A DNA stretch of 64,000 bases from a virus: the IMG/VR virus record IMGVR_UViG_3300029566_000004; one strand, 5' to 3'. The position numbers and the translations under genes are program-made. Of the stretch, positions 1 through 43,045 are shown piece by piece. A model generated the notes under the pieces. That model was not told the DNA's origin and ran no database searches. It worked only from the letters and a program-made list of their open reading frames with translations. The stretch's first letter is position 1. Each line of letters opens with the position of its first letter.

Positions 1-3000
1 TTAGAATTATCTACACACCAAACAGATAGAACACGTTTATCAGAATTGTTTACATTTTGTGATAGTTTAATTTTTAATATAGATATTAAATGTAATTTAA
101 GGTCATCTTACCCATATGTTTACAAAGGAGCTTATAAAATTGAATTAGTACGTATTTTAAATGACACTGAATTAGTATTAGGAACGCTCGATATGAATGC
201 ACTGGTGGGTGATCCATATGGATATTATTCTTATTTACCACAATCTATTGTTATTAATTTAGATGCATTGCGTGAAGAGAAAAATGATTTATTCCCAGAA
301 TCTGCTATCTTGCAATTAAAAACATCATTAGTAACACCTTTTGAATATCGCACAGAAACAGGAGAGACATTGTTAATTCCAAGTGCTGTTTCTGCATATA
401 CACCTACATTAACTTATTAGATACCAGAATTAGTGGGTTTAAAACAATTTTTAACTACTGAAAAAATAACTATTTTACCTCCTTTGGTAGAATTTAAAAA
501 TTGTTCACTAGAAATTGGATTTAATACTACACATAAAAATCATACGTTTAATTTATATTAGCCTTTATAGAGTTCTGAAATGGTTGTCCCAATTTGGGTT
601 AATTATGATGAAGATACGAATACAAATATTGATTTTACTGATAGAAACAAACGCACATCATTATCATTAGAAGAATTTCGTTCTTCAGAAGAAAATCAAT
701 GGTTAATAGATGATGAATTAGCTACATGGCTAAATGCTATGATGAATAATACAAATAAGACCAATCCAGAAGCTATGTATGATGAAATAAAATATTCTAA
801 AATTGTTAATTATTTAAAACGTTGTAATATTAATCGTGCAACTGCTTTGTAGGAGTTTGGATTAGAAATTGCTCATTTGGCTCCTGAACAGAAAACAGAA
901 TTAATGCAAATGGTTAATACAAAAGAATTTTTAAGTGCTTATTCAGATATGCTTGATTTAAGCGCATTAATTGAAACAGATTGGCAAGAATTAATTGCCG
1001 CAACTAAAAAGGCAAATTAGTTGTTGTTGCGTCAGTATTTACCTAATGCGCAGGATAACTTACTTGTAGTTGATAATTCAGTTTCACTACTAGATAGTGA
1101 TTGTGAATTATTAGTTACTCCTACTGATTTTACAGATACTTATGCAACATTAAAAATTGCTTTAAAACGACGTGGGCCATTATATAATGGTAGTAATTAT
1201 TTACATTTAGTATTAGCGTTTAAAGAAAATATTGGTATTCAAATACCTGATGTAAATAATGAAAGAAAATGGAAGTATGCCATTGCTGATGGAACAACAT
1301 TTATGGAATTACCTACATCTCCTGACGATTCAGTTCCAAGAAATTCTACTTTAGTCAGTTGGATTAGTTCTTCAATATCTGATGATGACTATTATAAAGT
1401 AGCTATTGATATTTGGAATGGAGAACAAAGTTTTAATTTAGCTTCTAATATTATAACTTTATAGATTCCAATTGATGCAGCTTTTGTACAAGGACTAATT
1501 CCTCTTAAAATTGAAAGTGACGTAAATTCATCTATAAATACGCAAATATTTACCAATGATAATTTTGCTTCATTATTTACAACAGTTAAACAAAACATGC
1601 CAATGCATACTTGTTTGTTTTATCTTTATAAAGAATAGATTTCTACATCAAATACTCGAGATTATTATTCATTACCAGTTGGCAATGAACTTAAAGGATT
1701 TTTTGCCTCAGACTTATGGTGGTCAACAGAATCAGCTCAATTAAATGATTTATTAGTTTATGTATCTCGAGAATCATCGACATCTGCAAATGATTGGGAA
1801 TTTAGGCAGGGAGATTCTTTCAATGGTTTATATTTAAATAAATCAGCAGAAAATGCAGCTTATGGTATATTATTTCCTATTTAGTTTACAAATATTGAAG
1901 ATGATGAACCACTTCCTAACGTTTCTGAGGAAATCATTAATCAGAATCATAAAATTCAAGTCAGTTTTAATATTGAAGGCATAAAATCGGGTGATTAGTT
2001 AGAAGTTATTGTAAAACGTTGTACTAATGGTATAGAAACAATTCCAATTTATCAAATTTTTTAGCAAAATCGTTCGGTTAATTTTACTTTAGACGCAAAT
2101 CAACCAAGTAATGATTTTTATGTATTTAAATTTTTATACAAATAGGCAAATCTAAACTCACAGCCTGTATCTTGTTGTCTTTCTAATTTTCAATGTTCAC
2201 AAAAACATTGGGTAATTACGTCAGGATCAACGGATTTAGTAACTGGTGCATGGCAAGACGTTTTAGCATTTAATGTAATAAATCAATATAATATTAGTAA
2301 TGAACCAAAAGTTAATGGCTATACGTTTGCTCATAGTTATGTGGCTAAAACATTAGAGTTAAGTTATAAATCTAATATTGTTTTAACTACTGTATTAACT
2401 GATTTCTAGTGGCCTGATAATTTACAAGATTGGAGTGATATTTTAGAAGATAAATTAATTAATTTTCATAAGTATGATGTTCGAAAAGCTTTTAATCAAT
2501 TAAACGAAAAATTCGCTGAGTTATTTACTGATTTAAATATGTCTGTTTTACTTAATAATCATACTTGGCGCACCTAGTTTAAAATTTACTTATTAAATTG
2601 GTTGGGAATTTTAGATACAAGCTCTATTCCTATATCAAACGATCCAACCATTTTTGATATTTGGCAAGAAACTGCGATGCCCTTAAATGATATACTAAAT
2701 TTATAGTTAAAATACTTTACAGCAATTTACAATTATTTTCTTAATCTTTTAAATATTTGGTATTCAAATCAAAATATACAAGAATTAATTCCTTATTATG
2801 TAAGTGCTGATAATTTATTACTATTTAAAAATGAAATAGATTTATTGCAAATTCAATATGATCATTTAATTCTTATGATGAATGAATTAAATGAAAAAGT
2901 ACAAGCTTTATTTCCAAAATATATAGATTCTGCAGTTGAGACTATTGTTTCATTGTGGAAATTACCAACTGGAACTAATATTGGTCCGAACGATTTTGAG

Positions 3001-3486: not shown

Positions 3487-6400
3487 ATGAGTAAATTATA
3501 CCCTCCAATCATTGAAAGTCGTTTACCCGCATTTAGTTTAACAGGTGGTAAAGGGTTAACTATTCCTTATCGCCAGAACCCTGCCGTTGGCGCTAATGAA
3601 GTAGATGGCTTTATTTGTTTAATTAAAACCTTGGGTGGTACAGAAAAAGGACGTTTATATTCTTAGACTAAGCCCAATTTAACCAATAATCTTGGCACTG
3701 TTACTTTTACATGGCATAAGCCAAGTACCGCAGAAAACAATGATAAGATAAAAAAGAGATTCGATGACAGCGCAGTTTTGTTAGCTTCATCTCCGCTCGA
3801 AGCTAGCGGAAGTGTGCCTGATACTGCTCATGATACTTCAGAATATATTTTAGGGCACCCTAATTATCAGTTAGAAGTAAATCGTATCTATAATGATGTA
3901 AATGATACAAATGCACTTGGTAATGAGCAATCATTAGACCATATACCAACAAGCGGTTATGATCCTGCCATTATTGAATTGATTAAACCAGAATATATAC
4001 CGCAAGATTCGGCATTTTTAGATGCAAGTCCAGGTGTATTGGCAGTTGAGGATTCATCCCCTACTGGAGGTACTGCTTTAATTGGTGATACTTCACAAGA
4101 AGATTATGATAATTATAAAAATATACCAATTGGCATTCGCGGCAATGCGATATTAATTAATAATAAATAGAATTATACTAATATTATTGATGAATTAAAT
4201 GGACAAACTATTTATAATACAGAGGGCAATTTTAATTTACAATACGATCAATTTTATAAAATTTAGTTGGCTTATTATCAAGGCGATGCAACTAATCTTG
4301 ATAATTTGTCTATTGGTTATTTTTCTGATGTAGCAATTATTAAATGTGTAAATTTGCCTAAAGCTATTATTGAGAATTTATCAATTAATTAGATTAATAT
4401 TATGAACAATAAATTTATTGGTGTCGTAAATAATTTGTATGGCACTGATAGACTTTATTCGTATCGTTTTGTTGTTGAAACTGTTAAATTAAATACTGAA
4501 CATGAGCATTAGATTGTATATGATACTGGTGAAATTTTATATACTGATTTTGATGATAAAATTTATACTAATTCTGATAATATTCAATTACGTTCTAGTC
4601 GTGTTGAATTGATTTATAATCAAGATCTAGAGTATATGCACAAGTACTATGTTACATTTTACGCAACGACCACTACAGGAATTAAAGTAGAATCTCCAAG
4701 CTATTTATTTAAAACTGGATATGCGATTCCTTTAAAATTTCATACACGTTATACACGACTTTTGGCGGAACCATTAATTAATAGTGGTGGTGTCAAGTTA
4801 AGCTTAACAACTGAACATGAAGCAATTGATACCAATACGGGGGAAAAAGTAATAACAAAAGATACAACTTTGTACAATGGTAAATTCCGCATTCTACGTT
4901 CAGATTCTCATTCTAAATATAAAACTTGGGATGAAATATTTTCTTTTGAATTACATGGTGAACATTTAGACCGAGCTTTATTTAATGATTTTACAATTGA
5001 ATAGAATACTGGATATCGCTATGCGCTACAACAATATAATCAAAAATTAGTTTCCAATAAATTATTGTCTAAAATAATTCATATTGATTATGAAGATATT
5101 TATCTGTCAGATGAAGACCATTTATTGCGAGTATGCTTTAATCCAAATATTTCTACCTTTAAACCAACAATTTTAGAATCTAAGTTGGAAACAATTGGTA
5201 GTAAATACCCTTATATGTTTAGAAATGGAATTGTAAACTATAAAGAATTTGCAATTACAGGCTTAATTTCTTATTTAATGGATAGTGACAATGTATTTTT
5301 ACCATATGAAGAAAGTATTTTTCAATTTGTAGAAAAAGAACCTCGTACAAACACTCGTAGTAAAATTGGTGTTAAACTTCCTGAAGAGTTTGACACAAAT
5401 AAAGATTCTATTAATTTAGTCTTAACTGATTTAACTGGTTAGAATATTTAGTATGAGCGTGATTTTAAGTTAAAAGTATTAAATTGGTTAACAAATGGCC
5501 AACCAAAATTATTACGTACGCCAACCGAAGGAAACTATATCGTTCGCTTAACCGGCGTATCATTATCTCCGTAGGCAGCTTTAGGGCGTATGTTACATAG
5601 CTTTAGTTGTACCGCATATGAAATCGATGAAGTAAATTTTGCGAATTTACAAAAATATCATTTATTGCGAATTAAATCTATTGCACCTCCAGAAGAGATT
5701 GAGTTAATATCAGACCAATTTGTATTTGATGAGCATGATTGTAAGGGTTTAATTAATCAAACTGATTTTTAGGCTTATTCAGATGAACAAGTTGGTGAAA
5801 CGAATTATCCTATTACCGCAATTCATATCCCAACTCAATCTGAATTGCTTGCAGCTATGCGTGATGACGGCGGATGGATTAATGGTTGGGCCAATCAAGT
5901 ACCACAGAATCTAACTAATGTGCGTTTTGAGGGATTTATACCAGGGTCTTATATTGGTTTAACCATGATTTCTTCTACTACTGGTGAAACTTATAAAGTG
6001 CCAATTTTAATTGGATTATCTGGTTGTTATAATGTATTAACTACAGATAAAATTAGTTTAGTTTATCCATTATGGGTACCGCCAAAACGCGTATGGAAAA
6101 TAAATGAAAAAATTAACTCTAAGGTAAGTAAGTTTGGTGCGCTTGGTTATTATACATATGAAGCGCAATCATTTAAAGGAACTATGTATTATTCTTATAA
6201 ACCATATTTAGTAGATAATACATTTAATTTAATTGATAGCGTTACTTTATCAGAAGATTTTATTCAAGTAACTGGATTACCTCGCAATTTAACGGCAGCA
6301 GAAACACCAAATTTAAAATATCCAAGATATTATTTTAATGTTAAAAATTAGTTAGATTTATTTGAATTTTATCAATTACATAATTTATTGACTAATGTGG

Positions 6401-33739: not shown

Positions 33740-34839
33740 AATATTATTCTCTCCTTAAATAATTGCATAAATTTTTCTGGGCCTTCATCGGTTGGGCTCG
33801 CTTTATATGAAGTAATTAAATGTTTATCAAAAATAAAGGATATTAATACTTCATTTTTATATTTTTTATGTAAACCTAAAAGTTTTGCTTTTAAACGTTT
33901 AAATTCACTATCACCTAACTCTTGGAATTGTCGGTCAAAAGCAATAATAATTTCTTGCACTCTATCTTCAATCAATAACTGTATTTGATATGATGATACA
34001 CTGCTACCACAGCATGCAACCGATATATCATTTTCCAAACCAAAATAACTTTGAAATTGTAGAGTGGATTTTTCACTTTCAAAAACAATAGCTTTACCCA
34101 TACGCTTTATATTGTCTTTTGAATTATTAAGGTTATATAAATTTAATCCAAGAGAATGATTATATTGTTGTTTATTAATAATCATTGGACGATATTTACC
34201 AAATCGTTCTGCATCTTCTTTGACCATCGTTCGTCCGCGCAGGCCTATAAATCGACCATCTTTATCAAAATGAGGAATACTAATTTGATCAGTAGAAAAA
34301 TTATATCCTATTTGCGCATGCGCTAATATCTATGGTTTAATATGATCATTAATCCAAGGCGTTAAATAATTCGGATTAATTGCCAATGGTCCCAATATGC
34401 GTTTATCATATTCTTTTAATTGCGGTACTTGATTTACTGTTGGAATATCATTAATCTTATCATATGCAATTAAATATTGCCAATCTGTTAAACCAAGATC
34501 TTCTGTATCACCTAAATCAATAACTATATTAAATTTAGCAGCAAGATAACGCACCGCATCATTTAAATCCATTTTGCGATTAGATTGAATTTGAGCAACT
34601 TTAATTGTTAATTCAAATATATCAAAAGCGCAATCACAATCAGTATAACATTTAAATAAATCACTATTTTCGTAAAAATAGAGTTTTCTACTTCCTTCTC
34701 CAGGCGGATTATGACAGATGGTATCAGAGATAAAACCAAAAGGGGTGAACTCTGGATTGCCACCCCATTCAGTTACTAATTGAAAGTAGTCATCAATGGA
34801 TAACTCTTCTCGAATTGCCTTCTTATCATAATCTTGCAT
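33736..34839 (-). CDS. dnaG: DnaG-type DNA primase (zinc-binding plus TOPRIM), one in-frame TAG
   Basis: Track ORFs 34330..34839 (Cys/His zinc-binding region CHNPPGEG..CYTDCDC) and 33736..34227 (TOPRIM: IVFESEKS, IIAFD) share a frame. They are bridged by TAG 34330-34332 plus an open 100-nt segment. Confidence 0.7.
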
Positions 34840-35625: not shown

Positions 35626-36665
35626 CACGTTATTCTCATATTTCTATGAGCGCTGACTATCTCTTACTACATAAAAATTTTTATGTAGGACACCTTTTCG
35701 GCATTTAACTGGCTTCGTTTCCTAAAACCAGACTACGTATCAATAGTAGCCCTACTCCCCCGTCCAGAAGACCTGGGGGATAGTCGATACAGCTTCTTTT
35801 TTTAGACGTTATTCCAAGTTCTATTTTTTATTATATCAGCGACTGTTGATCTAGAACATTTATATTCTTCTGCTAATTTACTATAAGATATTTTTTCATT
35901 TTGATATCTTTTTCTAATTTCATTAGCTATTTCCTAATTCATTTTTGTATGTCTTCCTTTTTCAATATAGTCTGGCATAATATTTTTATATCTTCTTCCA
36001 GACCAAATATTTAAAAATGAATTATAATGTAGTCGTTCTGAATATTTTTCTTTATAAATTTTACTTGGACTTTCTCCATTTTTATAAGCAATACGTAATT
36101 CTTTTATCTCGCTTGGGGTTAACTCTGCTTGCCCCCAAGTTAATTTTTCTTTCTATTCCAATGTTTTTGGCTTAGAAGCGTTTTTTCCTCCAATTTCAAT
36201 ATTATATCCATTTGGAATTAATGTATTATACTAAATAATATAATATTTTTCTAATTGATTTAATATATCTATATCGGGAATATCTTTAACTAATATTTCA
36301 TAAGTAAAATTTTCAAATCCATATTTTCTAAACGCTCTATGCAATGGTGAATTATATTCACTACTGTTTTCATTTTTATATGAACTTTTATGATTATTAT
36401 ATCTTTCATTTTTTGGACTAATTGATTGTCCTATATATTGCTTATTATTAATTTGATTTATAAATCGGTAAATAATTCCCATAAAATCAACTCCTTTCAA
36501 TATCGTATGAAAATAGTCAATTATATTTTAATTACTCCCGTCCAAAAAAAGTTTGCCACGGGATTCCCATGCATTACTGTTTAGGGTTCCCCGTTAGCCA
36601 CAATTGTGACCCCGCTGATTAGCGGAAAAGTGTTTCACTGTCCCGTCACCCTTTCAATAGGGTCG
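35626..36665 (-). mobile_element. Group I intron in the dnaB-like gene (1040 nt) with a GIY-YIG homing endonuclease gene
   Basis: Exon 1 ends ..GTG TT (U) and the intron ends ..ACGTG (G). R-like GTATCGACTA (35781-35790) and S-like AGATAGTCAG (35653-35663). Both flanks are about 85% identical to the thyX-like intron. Confidence 0.7.
35802..36482 (-). CDS. GIY-YIG homing endonuclease (226 aa) with three in-frame TAG
   Basis: ATG 36482 follows AAAGGAG. GIIYRFINQ..QYIGQS, ..YYII(TAG)YNTLIPNGYNI, C-terminal HTH-like region. TAG at 36231, 36153 and 35934. Frame checked triplet by triplet to TAA 35802-35804. Confidence 0.75.
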
Positions 36666-38285: not shown

Positions 38286-39281
38286 TTATGAAAGCTGCTT
38301 TAAGTCGTATATAATAAGGTCAAGTTCTGCAGCCTGTGCCGGTGTGCATTCTCCAACCTTCTTTCCAACTCCAAGATGACTCTCTACAATTTTTGTAATT
38401 TTCTGAGCCATAGTTGGACTATTGGTCTGCATTAAATGTCCAACGATGGACTGGAATTCATCCATTAATGCATTAAAGTTATAAGAAGTAGTTGGGGCCT
38501 CACGATTTGCTTTTTCATCCGTAACAAAATTGTTACTATGTTCAGCAGCTTCTTTATCAATTGCTTCACCAATTGCATTCACTAGTGAATCATAATTAAA
38601 ATCAATTACTGCAGGGATATACTTAAAACGAGAACCAGCGATAAAGCGAGGAGTTCCACGCATAAAGAGTTTAGTTACAACTTCGCCATTTTCAGCTTGA
38701 ACTTCACGAGCATAACCAATGATATCACAAGTACGTTCACAAACTAAACGACCACGAGTATCCAGAGTGGGAACCATCTGATTAAACTCTGTACCAGTTT
38801 CATCCTTAAATGTCTTATCAACATCGTGACTAATTATAACAAGACCGTAATCCATCTGAATAATCTTACGAAGACATTCATCAAATTCTTGCATAACGAG
38901 CTTATATCCTTTACCATAGGGGATATCACCGATTGCTTCATAAGTAACTTTTTCATTACTCTCTTGTGAGCAAATAGCCTTTTCGCAATAACCATATGCG
39001 ATATCTGCAGTATCAATAATAACTGTTTTGAACAGCTCTTTGACTTCTGGGTCATTTAATTCACGTAAAGTTTTCTTAAATTCAGACCAAGAATTAATAG
39101 GCTTTACCATAATTCCGGGAATTGCATTATAGCCTTTTTCGAAAGCAAGCAATAACGCACCAGGAAATTTAGAGGCAACAGTGGTCTTTCCACTCTTTGC
39201 AGCGCCATAGAAAAATACTGAATACCCTCTTAAATCTCGACTAACTTTATGTGGTTTAATACTCAATAATGAATTTGCCAT
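38286..39281 (-). CDS. AAA_24-family (Sak4-like) ATPase
   Basis: Walker A GAAKSGKTT, Walker B VIIDTAD. 331-aa intact ORF. Confidence 0.7.
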   Translation of the reverse strand: MANSLLSIKPHKVSRDLRGYSVFFYGAAKSGKTTVASKFPGALLLAFEKGYNAIPGIMVKPINSWSEFKKTLRELNDPEVKELFKTVIIDTADIAYGYCEKAICSQESNEKVTYEAIGDIPYGKGYKLVMQEFDECLRKIIQMDYGLVIISHDVDKTFKDETGTEFNQMVPTLDTRGRLVCERTCDIIGYAREVQAENGEVVTKLFMRGTPRFIAGSRFKYIPAVIDFNYDSLVNAIGEAIDKEAAEHSNNFVTDEKANREAPTTSYNFNALMDEFQSIVGHLMQTNSPTMAQKITKIVESHLGVGKKVGECTPAQAAELDLIIYDLKQLS

Positions 39282-39326: not shown

Positions 39327-40280
39327 TTAGAACTTAAAGTCACCAGTTGCAGGAACAGTGGTTGTCTTAATCGCATTAGCTTGATTGGCTCTCCATTCAG
39401 CCGTACGCTGTTTCTTTGCTGCAAGTTCCATTTCTCTATCACTCATTGCCTTTTTGAGTTCATTTACAGTAATAGTATCTTCACTATCCCATTCATAAGC
39501 TTCGGCACGCGCGCCAGTGATAACCCAGTCCTTACGACTGTGACTAATTTCACGAATAGAAGGCTCGCCAAATGCAGATTCCTCTGTAATTGTGCGAGTT
39601 ACTGTGGCAGATACTTGATTACCCCAAATATTAGTAAATACGGGTTCTTTAGAGCTAGCGCCTAAACTAAGGAAATAATTAATTGCATTAGGATTGGTTG
39701 CAATAAAATCTACAGGGAGCAGAACATTACGGAAATCAAAAATACAACCCTTAACAATAAGACCATCAGGAATATTTTTATCGGGGTCGCCTTCGCGCTC
39801 AGTAGTTCCTGTGATAATCATATCAACTTTGAAAGTATTACGACGCTTCTCATCAGCATCAAGATTATTATCAGTAATAATATGGATAAAGCCACCTTCA
39901 TTACGCTTTGTACTTACCAAAGTTTCCTCATCTTTAGTAGTAGTATCATACCATTCATTTAAACCGATTGCAGAATCAATACGAATACGTGCAGCTTCAT
40001 TCCAATCAGAATCCATAACAGTTTTAATCTTACCGTTAAGAATATCCATAAGAATAGGATAATTTGGGTTTTTCTTAGTCTTATTGGGATAAGTGGGTGC
40101 AACATAGGTAAAATGAACAGATACAATATTAGTATGATTATTATCAGTAGCAATATCAATAGTGCCAGTTACATATGGGGTGCCAGGGTTTTTAGATTCT
40201 TTACTAGATTCCTTAGCCTCAAGTTTATGTGCATATAAAATTCCTTCAATATGTGTCTAATTAATCATATTTTTCTTCAT
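39327..40280 (-). CDS. Putative ssDNA-binding protein (317 aa), TAG at codon 8
   Basis: ATG 40280 follows AAAGGAGAAG. MKKNMIN(TAG)THIEGILY.. continues in frame into track ORF 39327..40049. Function is inferred from position next to AAA_24 only. Confidence 0.5.
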
Positions 40281-40355: not shown

Positions 40356-40786
40356 TTACTTAGATATTTCATCTCCAAAAAGCAGAACATCCGCATAAGG
40401 TAACTGTCGTGCAAACTTCATAAAATCTTTCGACCATTCAGTTAATTTATGGTATCTACGCTGAGTTGGCAAACACATTTCATAAAGATTTTCATAATTC
40501 ATAGTGACTGTACGAGTTTGCAAAAAACTTTCTGGCAACCAACGAATCAATTCTTTCCAATATTTCTTATCTTTTGTTTCAAGATATTTTTGACGTAATG
40601 ATTCACAAATATTAATTATAGTTTTTGCTGCTGATTCATTTAATCCAGTTTCAATTTCATGCATTACATCAGAATGATAGTCATCAATTTCAAAACAATC
40701 TAATGTAATTGGTTTACTTGTAAGTTTATGCATAGTAGAAGTCGAGTTAGCAGTAGTACCTACTTTATAAGTATCAAATTCTTTCC
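40356..40786 (-). CDS. ThyX-like (Thy1-fold) protein, exon 2
   Basis: (W)KEFDTYKVGTTANSTSTMHKL.. continues ..APLYW from exon 1. Confidence 0.6.
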
Positions 40787-41381
40787 CATTTATGGACTAT
40801 CTTTTACTCTCTAATGAGAGGATACCATTTCGGCATTTAATTAGCTTCGTTTCCTAAAACTAAACTACGTATCAATAGTAGCCCTACTTCCCTGCCCAGA
40901 AGGCCTTGGGAATAGTCTCTACAGGTTCATTTCAAACACACATTTTAAATATAAAACTTTACTCTACGTCTAAACTATAGCCTTCAATCTCGGCTTTAAT
41001 TTCAAGCTGGTACAAATATTGCCCCATAGCACTTGCTTGTGACTTCCACTGCTCCATAGGGCAATTTGGTTCAAAATCAAGCTTACCAGCTTCTCTCTTT
41101 ATAATCATTGAATGGAGTTTATTATACTTGTCCTTAACAAAATAATACTCTCCAATCGCCCTACTCTTATAATCATCAGATTTTAGTAATTCAATAATCC
41201 TATCAAACGTCATAGTAATTGCCTCCTTAAAATAACAAATCCTTAGTTTACAAGTTATATGTGTGTGTTTGAAATGTTTCCCACGGGATTCCAATGGGGG
41301 GTTCCCCGTTAGCTATATTTTACAAAAAATATAACCCTCGCTGATAGACGAGAAAAGTATTTCATTGGCAGAAAGAATTCT
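40787..41381 (-). mobile_element. Group I intron in the thyX-like gene (595 nt) carrying a non-nuclease ORF
   Basis: Exon 1 ends ..TAC TGG T (U) and the intron ends ..AAATG (G). R-like GTAGAGACTA (40913-40922) and S-like AGATAGTCCA (40793-40802). Paralogous to the dnaB intron. Confidence 0.7.
40959..41213 (-). CDS. Intron-encoded 84-aa protein without recognisable homing-endonuclease motifs
   Basis: ATG 41213 follows TAAGGAGG. MTFDRIIELLKSDDYKSRAIGEYYFVKDKYNKLHSMI..; predicted helical. No GIY-YIG, LAGLIDADG, HNH or His-Cys motif seen. Confidence 0.5.
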   Translation of the reverse strand: MTFDRIIELLKSDDYKSRAIGEYYFVKDKYNKLHSMIIKREAGKLDFEPNCPMEQWKSQASAMGQYLYQLEIKAEIEGYSLDVE

Positions 41382-41772
41382 ACCAGTAGAGTGGAGCAGT
41401 AATATCAACAGATACTATAATTTGTCGCATAAATTTACGATGCTCTGGACCAGCCATAATAAGCTTATGAGCAAGATTTAAATCATCAGGACACAAAGCA
41501 GCATATTCTACATAACTACCATCAGTATGAATAATAGAACGCTGTGTAATATCTTTTACAGTCTTGGCATATAAAGTATCATAATCGGGATCGAGCATAT
41601 TTAAATGAGCTGCTTCCAACCATTTTGTCGCTAGACTCTATACAGTCGCACCGAATACAATAATAGGCTTAGTTCCAAATTCGCTTAAAGATTTATTCCA
41701 GCTATTATGAGGATTTCGCATTCCTCGAAATGCCCCCTCAAAATTAAACACTCTTATATTTTCAAATTTCAT
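41382..41772 (-). CDS. ThyX-like protein, exon 1, one in-frame TAG
   Basis: MKFENIRVFNFEGAFRGMRNPHNSWNKS.. TAG at 41638-41640. ..EHRKFMRQIIVSVDITAPLYW. Exons sum to 273 codons. Confidence 0.6.
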
Positions 41773-42004: not shown

Positions 42005-43045
42005 TCATTTAATACTATAACCAAATTCTTTTGCTCCAAAATAATTTTGCCAATAGATTTCTCGTTCATTTAAAAGTTCTGGAGGACATTCCTCGATTAC
42101 TTCAAACATAAAATTCTCAACACCATCGGCTTGCATAGCTGGATACAACTTATTGCGAGTTTGCGCTTCAGCGCCTAACCCGCGTTTTATGTGCTGGCGC
42201 CAACGGTCGGCAAAACGCACGCATTGACCTACATAGCACATTCCATTTAAAGTATTTGTAATTTTATAAATGCCCCCTACTTTATCACCAATTACACGAC
42301 CAATTAAATCGGTTGTAGGTTTTTCATAGTAACATTTATAAATTAATTTATTGAGAGTTTCTGGATTGTGTAAATACGGAGTGATACTTCGTAATTTTTC
42401 AATCTCCAATAGGTCAGTAGAAGGAATTTGTAACATATAGAAACTTTGCTGTTGCGCGTCAAGCATCATGCGTTTATAAGATTCAATGGCTGCCCGAGTT
42501 TTCTCTTGACATTCATTTAATCTATGGCGCTCTGATATAAATTGTTTGCGTAATTCTTTAATTTCATTTGCAAATTCTTCTTTTACTATTAAAAAATCTG
42601 ACCGATATTTATCAATTTCTTCTTGATAATTTTCGGCTTCTCGTTGAGCACTTTCCTCAAAGGAAGTTTCCATTCGCGCTTTAGCTTTATCATAAATTGC
42701 GCTGACGGCTTCTCTTGCCATTTCTTCAGTTGTTCGTGCATTAAAATCTAATTGACTAATGCGAGCATTAAGTTCAGCTTCTTCTGACTATAAAAAACCA
42801 ATGCTAAGATTAAGTGCATCTTCTCGTTCTTGTAAATCTCGGATAGTATTATTTTCCTGCTCAATGAGTTGAGAAGCTTCAAGCGCCTCAAGGCGCAAAT
42901 TGTCTCTCTATTCTTGTAGAATAGCAATCGACTTCTTCTATCGAATAATTGAGTGCTTTCTACTAAAATAAATATAAAAGTGTGCGCCGATGGAAATCAG
43001 ACTTATTGTTCCAAATATTATTAAAAGTGATAGTTCAATCGGCAT
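42005..43045 (-). CDS. Membrane-anchored coiled-coil protein with C-terminal GIY-YIG/T5orf172-like domain (346 aa), three in-frame TAG
   Basis: ATG 43045. N-terminal transmembrane helix (LSLLIIFGTISLISIGAHFYIYF). TAG at 42938, 42908 and 42788. C terminus GGIYKITN..CYVGQ..RWRQH..NE.EIYW. Confidence 0.6.

Follow-up and report, generated by a model that had tools for sequence, protein, structure and literature searches.

Group I introns of phages are usually viewed as selfish elements whose sole cargo is their own homing nuclease, and the persistence of members devoid of a nuclease is an old question. The td intron of phage T4, of subgroup IA2, carries in the loop of its P6a helix the open reading frame (ORF) of the GIY-YIG nuclease I-TevI with its own ribosome-binding site, and contains extra hairpins of the P7.1/P7.2 type. 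Fungal mitochondrial rRNA genes harbor group I introns that encode the ribosomal protein rps3. For group I introns of bacteria and phages, the cargo listed in reviews consists of nucleases, maturases and the IStron only, the latter being an IA2 intron combined with IS605 transposases in C. difficile (PMC3984707). Introns without an ORF can be served by free-standing nucleases, which is known as collaborative homing (PMC3984707), and the T4 nrdB intron, whose I-TevIII is defunct, is mobilised in trans by MobE (PMC2790892). The element described here is an intron of 595 nucleotides (nt) in a thyX-like gene of the viral record IMGVR_UViG_3300029566_000004, of which a stretch of 64,000 nt, referred to below as the window, was analysed; in one of its loops the intron contains an ORF of 84 amino acids (aa), ORF84, which belongs to the Sequestin family, so that a selfish intron seems to carry a counter-defence gene.

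Ten of the 13 Sequestins tested inhibit type I Thoeris, and no inhibition of type II Thoeris, CBASS or Pycsar was seen with any of the 13 (10.1101/2025.07.12.664507). SequestinA binds 3'-cyclic ADP-ribose (3'cADPR) at a ratio of 1:1 and releases it intact; its model is an antiparallel dimer that has two pockets, and the substitutions E12A, Q47A and R61A abolish its activity (10.1101/2025.07.12.664507). A second group obtained a crystal structure for a Sequestin domain and found tight binding of 1'',3'-gcADPR, and an N4-like anti-defence hot spot with an Acb4-Sequestin has also been reported (10.64898/2026.06.04.730250). The word intron is absent from the main text of both papers, and full-text searches aimed at both intron cargo and anti-defence found no literature linking the two.

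Taken jointly, the sequence data make it probable that positions 40787-41381 of the window are a self-splicing group I intron which interrupts a gene encoding a ThyX-fold protein and whose P6a loop holds a complete Sequestin-family gene. All genes of the window between 33 and 44 kb lie on the minus strand, and the parts of the locus are the following:

40787-41381, minus strand: group I intron of 595 nt in the thyX-like gene (gap in the intron-less allele, U.G pair and terminal G, helix covariation)
41382-41772, minus strand: exon 1 of the thyX-like gene, with one in-frame TAG at 41638-41640 (translation, spliced match to uninterrupted homologues)
40356-40786, minus strand: exon 2 of the thyX-like gene (translation, junction of the intron-less allele, uninterrupted homologues)
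40959-41213, minus strand: ORF84, Sequestin-family (PF21825) gene of 84 aa (Pfam, homologues, residues, AlphaFold2 (AF2) model, ratio of nonsynonymous to synonymous substitution rates (dN/dS))
41222-41228, minus strand: Shine-Dalgarno sequence of ORF84 (AAGGAGG), 7 nt upstream of its ATG

The ends of the intron are given by an intron-less allele found in the same metagenome, IMGVR_UViG_3300045988_165556 (L103), whose flanks are 95–97% identical to those of the window and which lacks exactly 40787-41381; the insertion/deletion polymorphism between the two is exact to a single base. The 5' splice site reads ..CUACUGGU/AGAAUUC, with 41382 as the last exon base, and the 3' splice site ..CCAUAAAUG/GGAAAGAA, with 40787 as the terminal G; the boundary rules used were those of group I introns, an exon ending in U and an intron ending in G. 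The junction in L103, CTACTGGT/GGAAAGAA, encodes APLYWWKEFDTYKVG, a peptide also present in the predicted spliced product of the window and in other uninterrupted homologues. The coordinates assigned to the intron in the first-pass annotation, 40787-41381, are thus its exact ends according to both the L103 allele and the splice-site rules.

Between these boundaries lies a conserved, covarying ribozyme structure. Its elements, with the helix names being our own assignment, are arranged as follows:

41366-41385, minus strand: P1 hairpin, in which exon UGGU and intron AGAA are followed by the loop UUCU and then by UUCU and the guide GCCA, with a U.G pair at the splice site
41356-41360, minus strand: P3 5' strand, AUACU, pairing with 40822-40826 (long-range helix assigned as P3)
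41314-41354, minus strand: hairpin A (41335-41354) and hairpin B (41314-41333), between P3 and P4
41283-41309, minus strand: P4-P5-P4' (ACGGGGAA..AAUCCCGU), with six pairs invariant in the family and a covarying P5
41262-41276, minus strand: P6a 5' strand, forming a 15-bp stem with 40928-40942 that closes the ORF-bearing loop
40928-40942, minus strand: P6a 3' strand (strand-pairing and covariation tests)
40841-40917, minus strand: P7 5' strand (40912-40917), P7.1 (40888-40912), P7.2 (40864-40882) and P7.3 (40841-40863) (pairing test)
40795-40826, minus strand: P3 3' strand (40822-40826), P8 hairpin (40807-40820), J8/7 and P7 3' strand (40795-40800) (coordinate map, pairing test)

Covariation was assessed in 18 ORF-trimmed relatives over 12 helices comprising 61 pairs. 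Standard pairs make up 93.8% of the cells, versus 74.9% in shuffles and 39–45% in slid controls; both-sided changes occur in 36 of the 61 pairs, and 207 compensatory cells are observed versus 66 expected. None of 500 shuffles was as good as the observed pairing values; these shuffles take no account of relatedness, but both the slid controls and the many different variants of the helices speak for a real fold. All cells of P3 pair (100%), three of its five pairs show double changes, and when own strands were compared with mismatched ones (27 distinct strand pairs) none of 2000 permutations was as good. Covariation was found in all nine tested pairs of P6a, whose duplex energy is -8.0 kcal/mol for self versus -3.5 kcal/mol for cross combinations (31 distinct strand pairs; 0 of 2000 permutations as good). 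The P7 5' strand, P7.1 and P7.2 are paired in 100% of cells each and P7.3 in 98.9%, with compensatory changes in P7.1 and P7.3. The ORF-less relative L264 aligns to Rfam Intron_gpI (RF00028) across the entire model, P4-P5-P4' included, with 42.4 bits (E 9e-10). The P1 hairpin of the form xGGU/..GCCx, with U.G at the splice site, recurs in family members whatever the host gene; the strings are UGGU/AGAA-UUCU-UUCUGCCA for the thyX site and GUU/C..GGAC for a dnaB site considered below. The family was surveyed by searching IMG/VR with an exact 23-mer from the 3' core, which recovers 105 stretches, 79 of them with both core halves; one sub-lineage is sampled in this way, and the counts are approximate. 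Apart from this family, a different and unrelated compact group I intron, above the threshold of the Rfam model RF00028 (72.6 bits), was seen at 2532-2784 (minus strand) of L221.

ORF84 matches the Pfam family PF21825, named 'Sequestin' in gene tables, with 43.6 bits over residues 14-71 (cut-off 24.8; E 2.8e-11), as well as PHROG 774. Its 106 homologues are 61–100% identical across the aligned part, and all close ones are annotated as PF21825. In an alignment with SequestinA-E the residues R18, E22 and Q59 of ORF84, equivalent to R8, E12 and Q47 of SequestinA, are invariant. The AF2 model, with a mean predicted local distance difference test score (pLDDT) of 94.7, is a two-helix hairpin (helices 15-41 and 53-77) preceded by a short N-terminal helix (3-10), and the subfamily possesses an extra segment, PNCPMEQW, between the helices. 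From these features of the sequence we infer a sponge activity of ORF84. PDB searches with ORF84, by sequence and by profile, gave nothing meaningful, and no nuclease catalytic domain or motif was found in Pfam, PHROGs or NCBIfam. The first-pass annotation had described the cargo of the thyX-site intron as an ORF without a recognisable nuclease motif and had called for structure prediction; indeed, the gene is a non-nuclease one, unrelated to the nuclease gene of the dnaB intron, and the prediction is a confident helical hairpin with no catalytic fold.

The ORF is intact, and the Shine-Dalgarno sequence ahead of it, already recognised as strong at the first pass, is AAGGAGG. Intron-borne alleles of ORF84 are under purifying selection, with dN/dS of 0.04–0.13 at a synonymous divergence (dS) of 0.36–0.61, and therefore ORF84 is maintained by selection while in introns. 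Since no sigma-70-like promoter consensus is present upstream of ORF84 inside the intron on the right strand, the gene is probably transcribed together with its thyX-like host gene.

The thyX-like gene is a hot spot for intron insertion, with APLYW/WKEFD as the common insertion site, and several alleles were found there: no intron (L103), an ORF-less intron (L189/L241 and L218/L259), an intron whose P6a loop holds either a GIY-YIG ORF of 176 aa (L185, L195 and L209) or a putative HNH-like ORF (nine loci), and an intron with a Sequestin (the window, L279, L213, L251, L256, L274 and L001-L016). Between exon 1 and the end of P4', L195, which comes from the same metagenome, shares 98.5% identity with the window; it differs over P6a and the ORF, and the identity is again 90% in the 3' core and exon 2. 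The most elaborate arrangement, the L002 type, of 1.65 kb (L002 2470-4126; also L003-L007 and L288), holds three ORFs in three loops: a hydrophobic 89-aa ORF in that of hairpin B, a Sequestin of 116 aa with a duplicated N-terminus in that of P6a, and, in that of P8, a DUF7211 protein of 182 aa that weakly matches GNAT acetyltransferases. Free-standing Sequestin homologues 76–86% identical to ORF84 occur in other phages with no intron cores nearby; the nearest relatives in cultured phages are at most 58% identical, and the copy of Thomasclavelia phage TR-TP1 (50% identity) is free-standing. The search of related phages suggested at the first pass found ORF84 homologues both inside introns and outside them. 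These data are most simply read as the uptake of a free-standing sponge gene by the loop of the intron, where it took the place of a nuclease gene. This fits one of the options of the first-pass annotation, a hitchhiker that replaced the nuclease gene, as near-identical phages of the same metagenome carry a GIY-YIG ORF in the same loop at the same site.

A gene of the Tad3 family (PF25185, named Thoeris anti-defence family) is located directly upstream of the intron-bearing thyX-like gene in L002 (1551-2228) and also in L003-L005. These contigs, of up to 390 kb, contain two predicted anti-Thoeris genes, Tad3 and Sequestin, within about 1.5 kb. Furthermore, about 17 introns of the family (L198, L204, L212, L216, L217, L223/L235/L277, L237, L250, L252/L255, L266 and L278) carry about 12 distinct small ORFs of 56–95 aa in their P6a loops. 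Ten of these were compared with Pfam and ten with PHROGs (nine in common), and no family was found, except that one gave weak hints of a zinc ribbon; these ORFs are additional candidates for accessory or anti-defence cargo.

A second intron of the same family is present in the window, together with its ORF:

35626-36665, minus strand: sister group I intron of 1040 nt in a dnaB-like helicase gene (splice rules, intron-less homologues, same core)
35802-36482, minus strand: homing-endonuclease-type ORF of 226 aa with GIY-YIG and helix-turn-helix (HTH) domains, in the P6a loop of the dnaB intron (Pfam GIY-YIG and HTH_7)

Its splice sites are UACGUGUU/CGACCC and AAUAACGUG/UCACGAC, with 35626 as the terminal G, and splicing gives KYVFHDYIHTS, a string found identically in more than 70 uninterrupted relatives at 67–86% identity; this peptide was part of one search pattern, and the tblastn matches nevertheless cover all 241 query residues. 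An uninterrupted dnaB is common in relatives, with a continuous match at 80 of 80 loci among the matches listed. The ORF of this intron encodes a GIY-YIG and HTH protein, as had been proposed, if three in-frame TAG codons (36231-36233, 36153-36155 and 35934-35936) are read through, and terminates in TAA. The blocks initially put forward as homologous, 35626-35801 and 40787-40958 on the 3' side and 36530-36640 and 41270-41375 on the 5' side, share long exact runs on the minus strand, and the pairwise alignment places the two introns in one group I family. Three motifs common to both (24, 15 and 32 nt) occur in exactly two copies each in the 64 kb, versus 0.00, 0.26 and 0.00 expected by chance, and the ribozyme cores by themselves have identities of 75% on the 5' side and 80% on the 3' side. 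The first-pass conclusion that the same core had spread to two genes within this genome is not supported: in its 3' core, the thyX-site intron shares 96% identity with L185 and 89% with L189, both located at the thyX site in other phages, and 80% with the dnaB intron of the window. Because the thyX-site intron is nearer to thyX-site introns of other phages than to the dnaB intron beside it, the comparison points to two site-specific lineages and not to a recent within-genome copy.

The family extends to Enterococcus phages EF1 and EF5, which carry an intron with a GIY-YIG ORF, the adjoining gene being annotated as DNA polymerase III alpha subunit; the EF1 locus (L022) lies at about 131.2–132.1 kb of MF001358.1, and the intron ORF of both phages is annotated as hypothetical protein only. 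Prevotella Lak megaphages, too, contain a match to a 75-nt segment of the core, at 83–84% identity.

The model of the spliced thyX-like protein has a pLDDT of 88, and its top 50 Foldseek hits in the PDB are all ThyX (best E 4.6e-7; template modelling (TM) score 0.45–0.57). No sequence match was found in Pfam, NCBIfam or the PDB, and the designation 'thyX-like' is therefore justified at the level of the fold and not at that of the sequence. The region of the ThyX motif RHRxxS..SxRY reads DTYKVGTTANSTSTMH in this protein, and the motif of its family is DTYKVGTxANSTSTMH. The family comprises at least 8000 homologues, all with E ≤ 1e-5, and no Pfam domain. The protein may be an uncharacterised nucleotide-modifying enzyme.

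Apart from exon 1 (41638-41640), an in-frame TAG interrupts the otherwise continuous conserved genes for a primase (34330-34332) and a YorF-like protein (about 40258-40260), and the TAG-interrupted genes examined terminate in TAA or TGA. The TAG of the intron-less thyX-like allele (P0107) is translated as Q by a public source, and counting TAG as sense raises the long stop-to-stop frames from 12.4k to 18.7k codons. The phage seems to recode TAG. No tRNA genes were found in the 64-kb window.

The working of the locus can be proposed as follows. ORF84 would be transcribed with the early or middle message of the thyX-like gene, related to nucleotide metabolism; its translation would depend on the Shine-Dalgarno sequence of the ORF itself, with the precursor or the excised intron as the template. 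The protein, as an antiparallel dimer, would sequester 3'cADPR made by TIR proteins, or a related nucleotide, and with the signal sequestered the Thoeris effector would stay silent. The intron, devoid of its own nuclease, would persist because its cargo benefits the phage and because its presence disrupts the target of the nucleases of sibling introns. In a mixed infection, such a sibling-intron nuclease might cut the intron-less allele, and repair would copy the Sequestin version, which would amount to homing in trans. One more nuclease gene adjoins the locus:

42005-42721, minus strand: free-standing GIY-YIG gene of 238 aa, just upstream of the thyX-like gene (Pfam and PHROG homing-endonuclease matches)

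Its product has a long coiled N-terminal part and a C-terminal nuclease domain, and the gene is intact at 96–99% identity in intron-less, GIY-YIG-intron and Sequestin-intron genomes. It is unlikely to be the helper, as an intact copy also accompanies the intron-less allele, and it is probably neither part of the element nor the mobilising nuclease; for the same reason, a nuclease encoded by a sibling intron of a co-infecting phage would be the likelier helper. In L103, at 5035-6130 (corresponding to about 39142-39145 of the window), an extra 1.1 kb with a 279-aa LAGLIDADG-type ORF is present that the window lacks, which is another presence/absence mobile nuclease.

Several observations weigh against the proposed interpretation, both of the RNA and of its cargo. 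Rfam gave no intron match in the window, either at the gathering score or at E up to 10, since the large ORFs split the RF00028 model. The score of the ORF-less L264 lies below the gathering score of 50, and the ORF-less thyX-site intron L189 gave no Rfam match. Comparison by Foldseek with viral predictions and the PDB gave the ORF84 model nothing below E 0.27, an uninformative result because helical hairpins carry little signal. R61 of SequestinA, the alanine mutant of which is inactive, corresponds to K73 in ORF84 and to Lys in nearly the whole subfamily, and the ligand or the affinity may therefore differ. Three of the 13 tested Sequestins were inactive (10.1101/2025.07.12.664507). As to mobility, homing in trans is a speculation, and collaborative homing by the gene at 42005-42721 was rejected as a simple explanation, this gene coexisting with the intron-less allele.

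These points bear on four other explanations. According to one, the insertion is a non-splicing cassette that splits the host gene into two separately translated pieces; the lack of an Rfam match in the window and the fact that exon 1 runs into TAG and then TGA agree with it, but exon 2 has neither an in-frame start nor a ribosome-binding site ahead of the conserved WKEFDTYKVGTTANSTST block, the ends comply with the U.G and terminal-G rules, the 61 modelled pairs covary across relatives, and the presence/absence polymorphism is precise to the base, which together leave a cassette highly improbable. Much more weight, within what is still an unlikely outcome, can be given to a Sequestin fold that serves a different nucleotide signal, such as a further isomer of cADPR, His-ADPR or some cyclic oligonucleotide, or has another role and does not inhibit type I Thoeris. 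It would accommodate K73, the PNCPMEQW segment with the short N-terminal helix, and the members without anti-Thoeris activity, and other sponge families bind several ligands; however, R18, E22 and Q59 are invariant as in active Sequestins, the change of Arg to Lys is conservative, and the tested members left type II Thoeris, CBASS and Pycsar uninhibited.

The two remaining explanations concern a role of ORF84 in the intron itself. The first-pass annotation had considered a novel homing or maturase-type factor, and a maturase or splicing cofactor needed for excision would suit a gene inside an intron, the more so as maturase activity is known for some intron ORFs (PMC3984707). Yet introns at the same site lack any ORF (L189/L241, L218/L259) or carry nuclease ORFs, free-standing relatives with 76–86% identity occur in phages without the intron, and searches of Pfam, PHROGs and NCBIfam found neither a LAGLIDADG nor an RNA-binding signature in ORF84; such a function appears about as improbable as the cassette. 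Least probable of all is a novel or degraded homing endonuclease, suggested by the position of ORF84 in the loop that nuclease genes use in sister introns: matches to nuclease families are absent from the three databases, selection is strongly purifying, AF2 gives an 84-aa helical hairpin in place of a catalytic fold, and the complete PF21825 domain, which aligns end to end with free-standing homologues, also disposes of the earlier proviso that the ORF might be a fragment of a decayed nuclease gene. A self-splicing intron with a Sequestin-family gene in its P6a loop is therefore the interpretation retained here.

In the loop of the thyX-site intron, a gene of an immune-signal-neutralising family is under purifying selection and is swappable with nuclease genes in co-occurring phages. 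If ORF84 is active, introns would pay their way through counter-defence cargo, homing could transfer counter-defence genes among phages, and intron loops would be a cheap hunting ground for new anti-defence genes. A broader proposal, tentative and on balance doubtful, is that the intron family is a general mobile carrier of small counter-defence or accessory genes, with three slots (the loops of hairpin B, P6a and P8), in which the dozen-odd orphan ORFs of 56–95 aa would be unrecognised anti-defence proteins; cargo introns devoid of a nuclease would spread among co-infecting phages by means of the nucleases of sibling introns, homing thereby becoming a delivery of immune evasion.

Among the known systems, the layout of the thyX-site intron resembles that of the T4 td intron of subgroup IA2. 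Both are group I introns in a phage nucleotide-metabolism gene, a role that is putative for the thyX-like gene, with an ORF in the P6a loop preceded by its own ribosome-binding site and with hairpins of the P7.1/P7.2 type between P7 and the P3 3' strand; the dnaB sister and many other family members also have GIY-YIG ORFs in the P6a loop. They differ in that the thyX-site cargo is a Sequestin-family gene and not a nuclease, and in the two hairpins located between the P3 5' strand and P4, and blastn detected no DNA similarity to T4. With the described Sequestins (SequestinA-J and T4 Y16Q; 10.1101/2025.07.12.664507) ORF84 shares the size class, the two-helix hairpin, the pocket residues R, E and Q, and a Pfam score above threshold, whereas it has Lys at the R61 position and the extra inter-helix segment; moreover, the described members stand alone or are fused to Tad2 or Acb4 (10.1101/2025.07.12.664507), while ORF84 is intron-borne.

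With regard to spread, the parallel with T4 nrdB and MobE is that an intron without a working nuclease could spread or be kept through a nuclease encoded elsewhere; here, in contrast, the free-standing GIY-YIG neighbor of the thyX-like gene coexists with the intron-less allele. The IStron and the rps3 introns likewise use a ribozyme loop as a slot for a gene other than a homing endonuclease, but the cargo at the thyX site is a predicted viral counter-defence gene, present as one allele among several that can replace each other there. As in anti-defence islands, Sequestin genes are found in variable, exchangeable loci near replication genes, with a Tad3-family gene upstream in the L002 type, whereas the exchangeable locus described here is not an intergenic island but the loop of a predicted self-splicing intron inside a coding gene.

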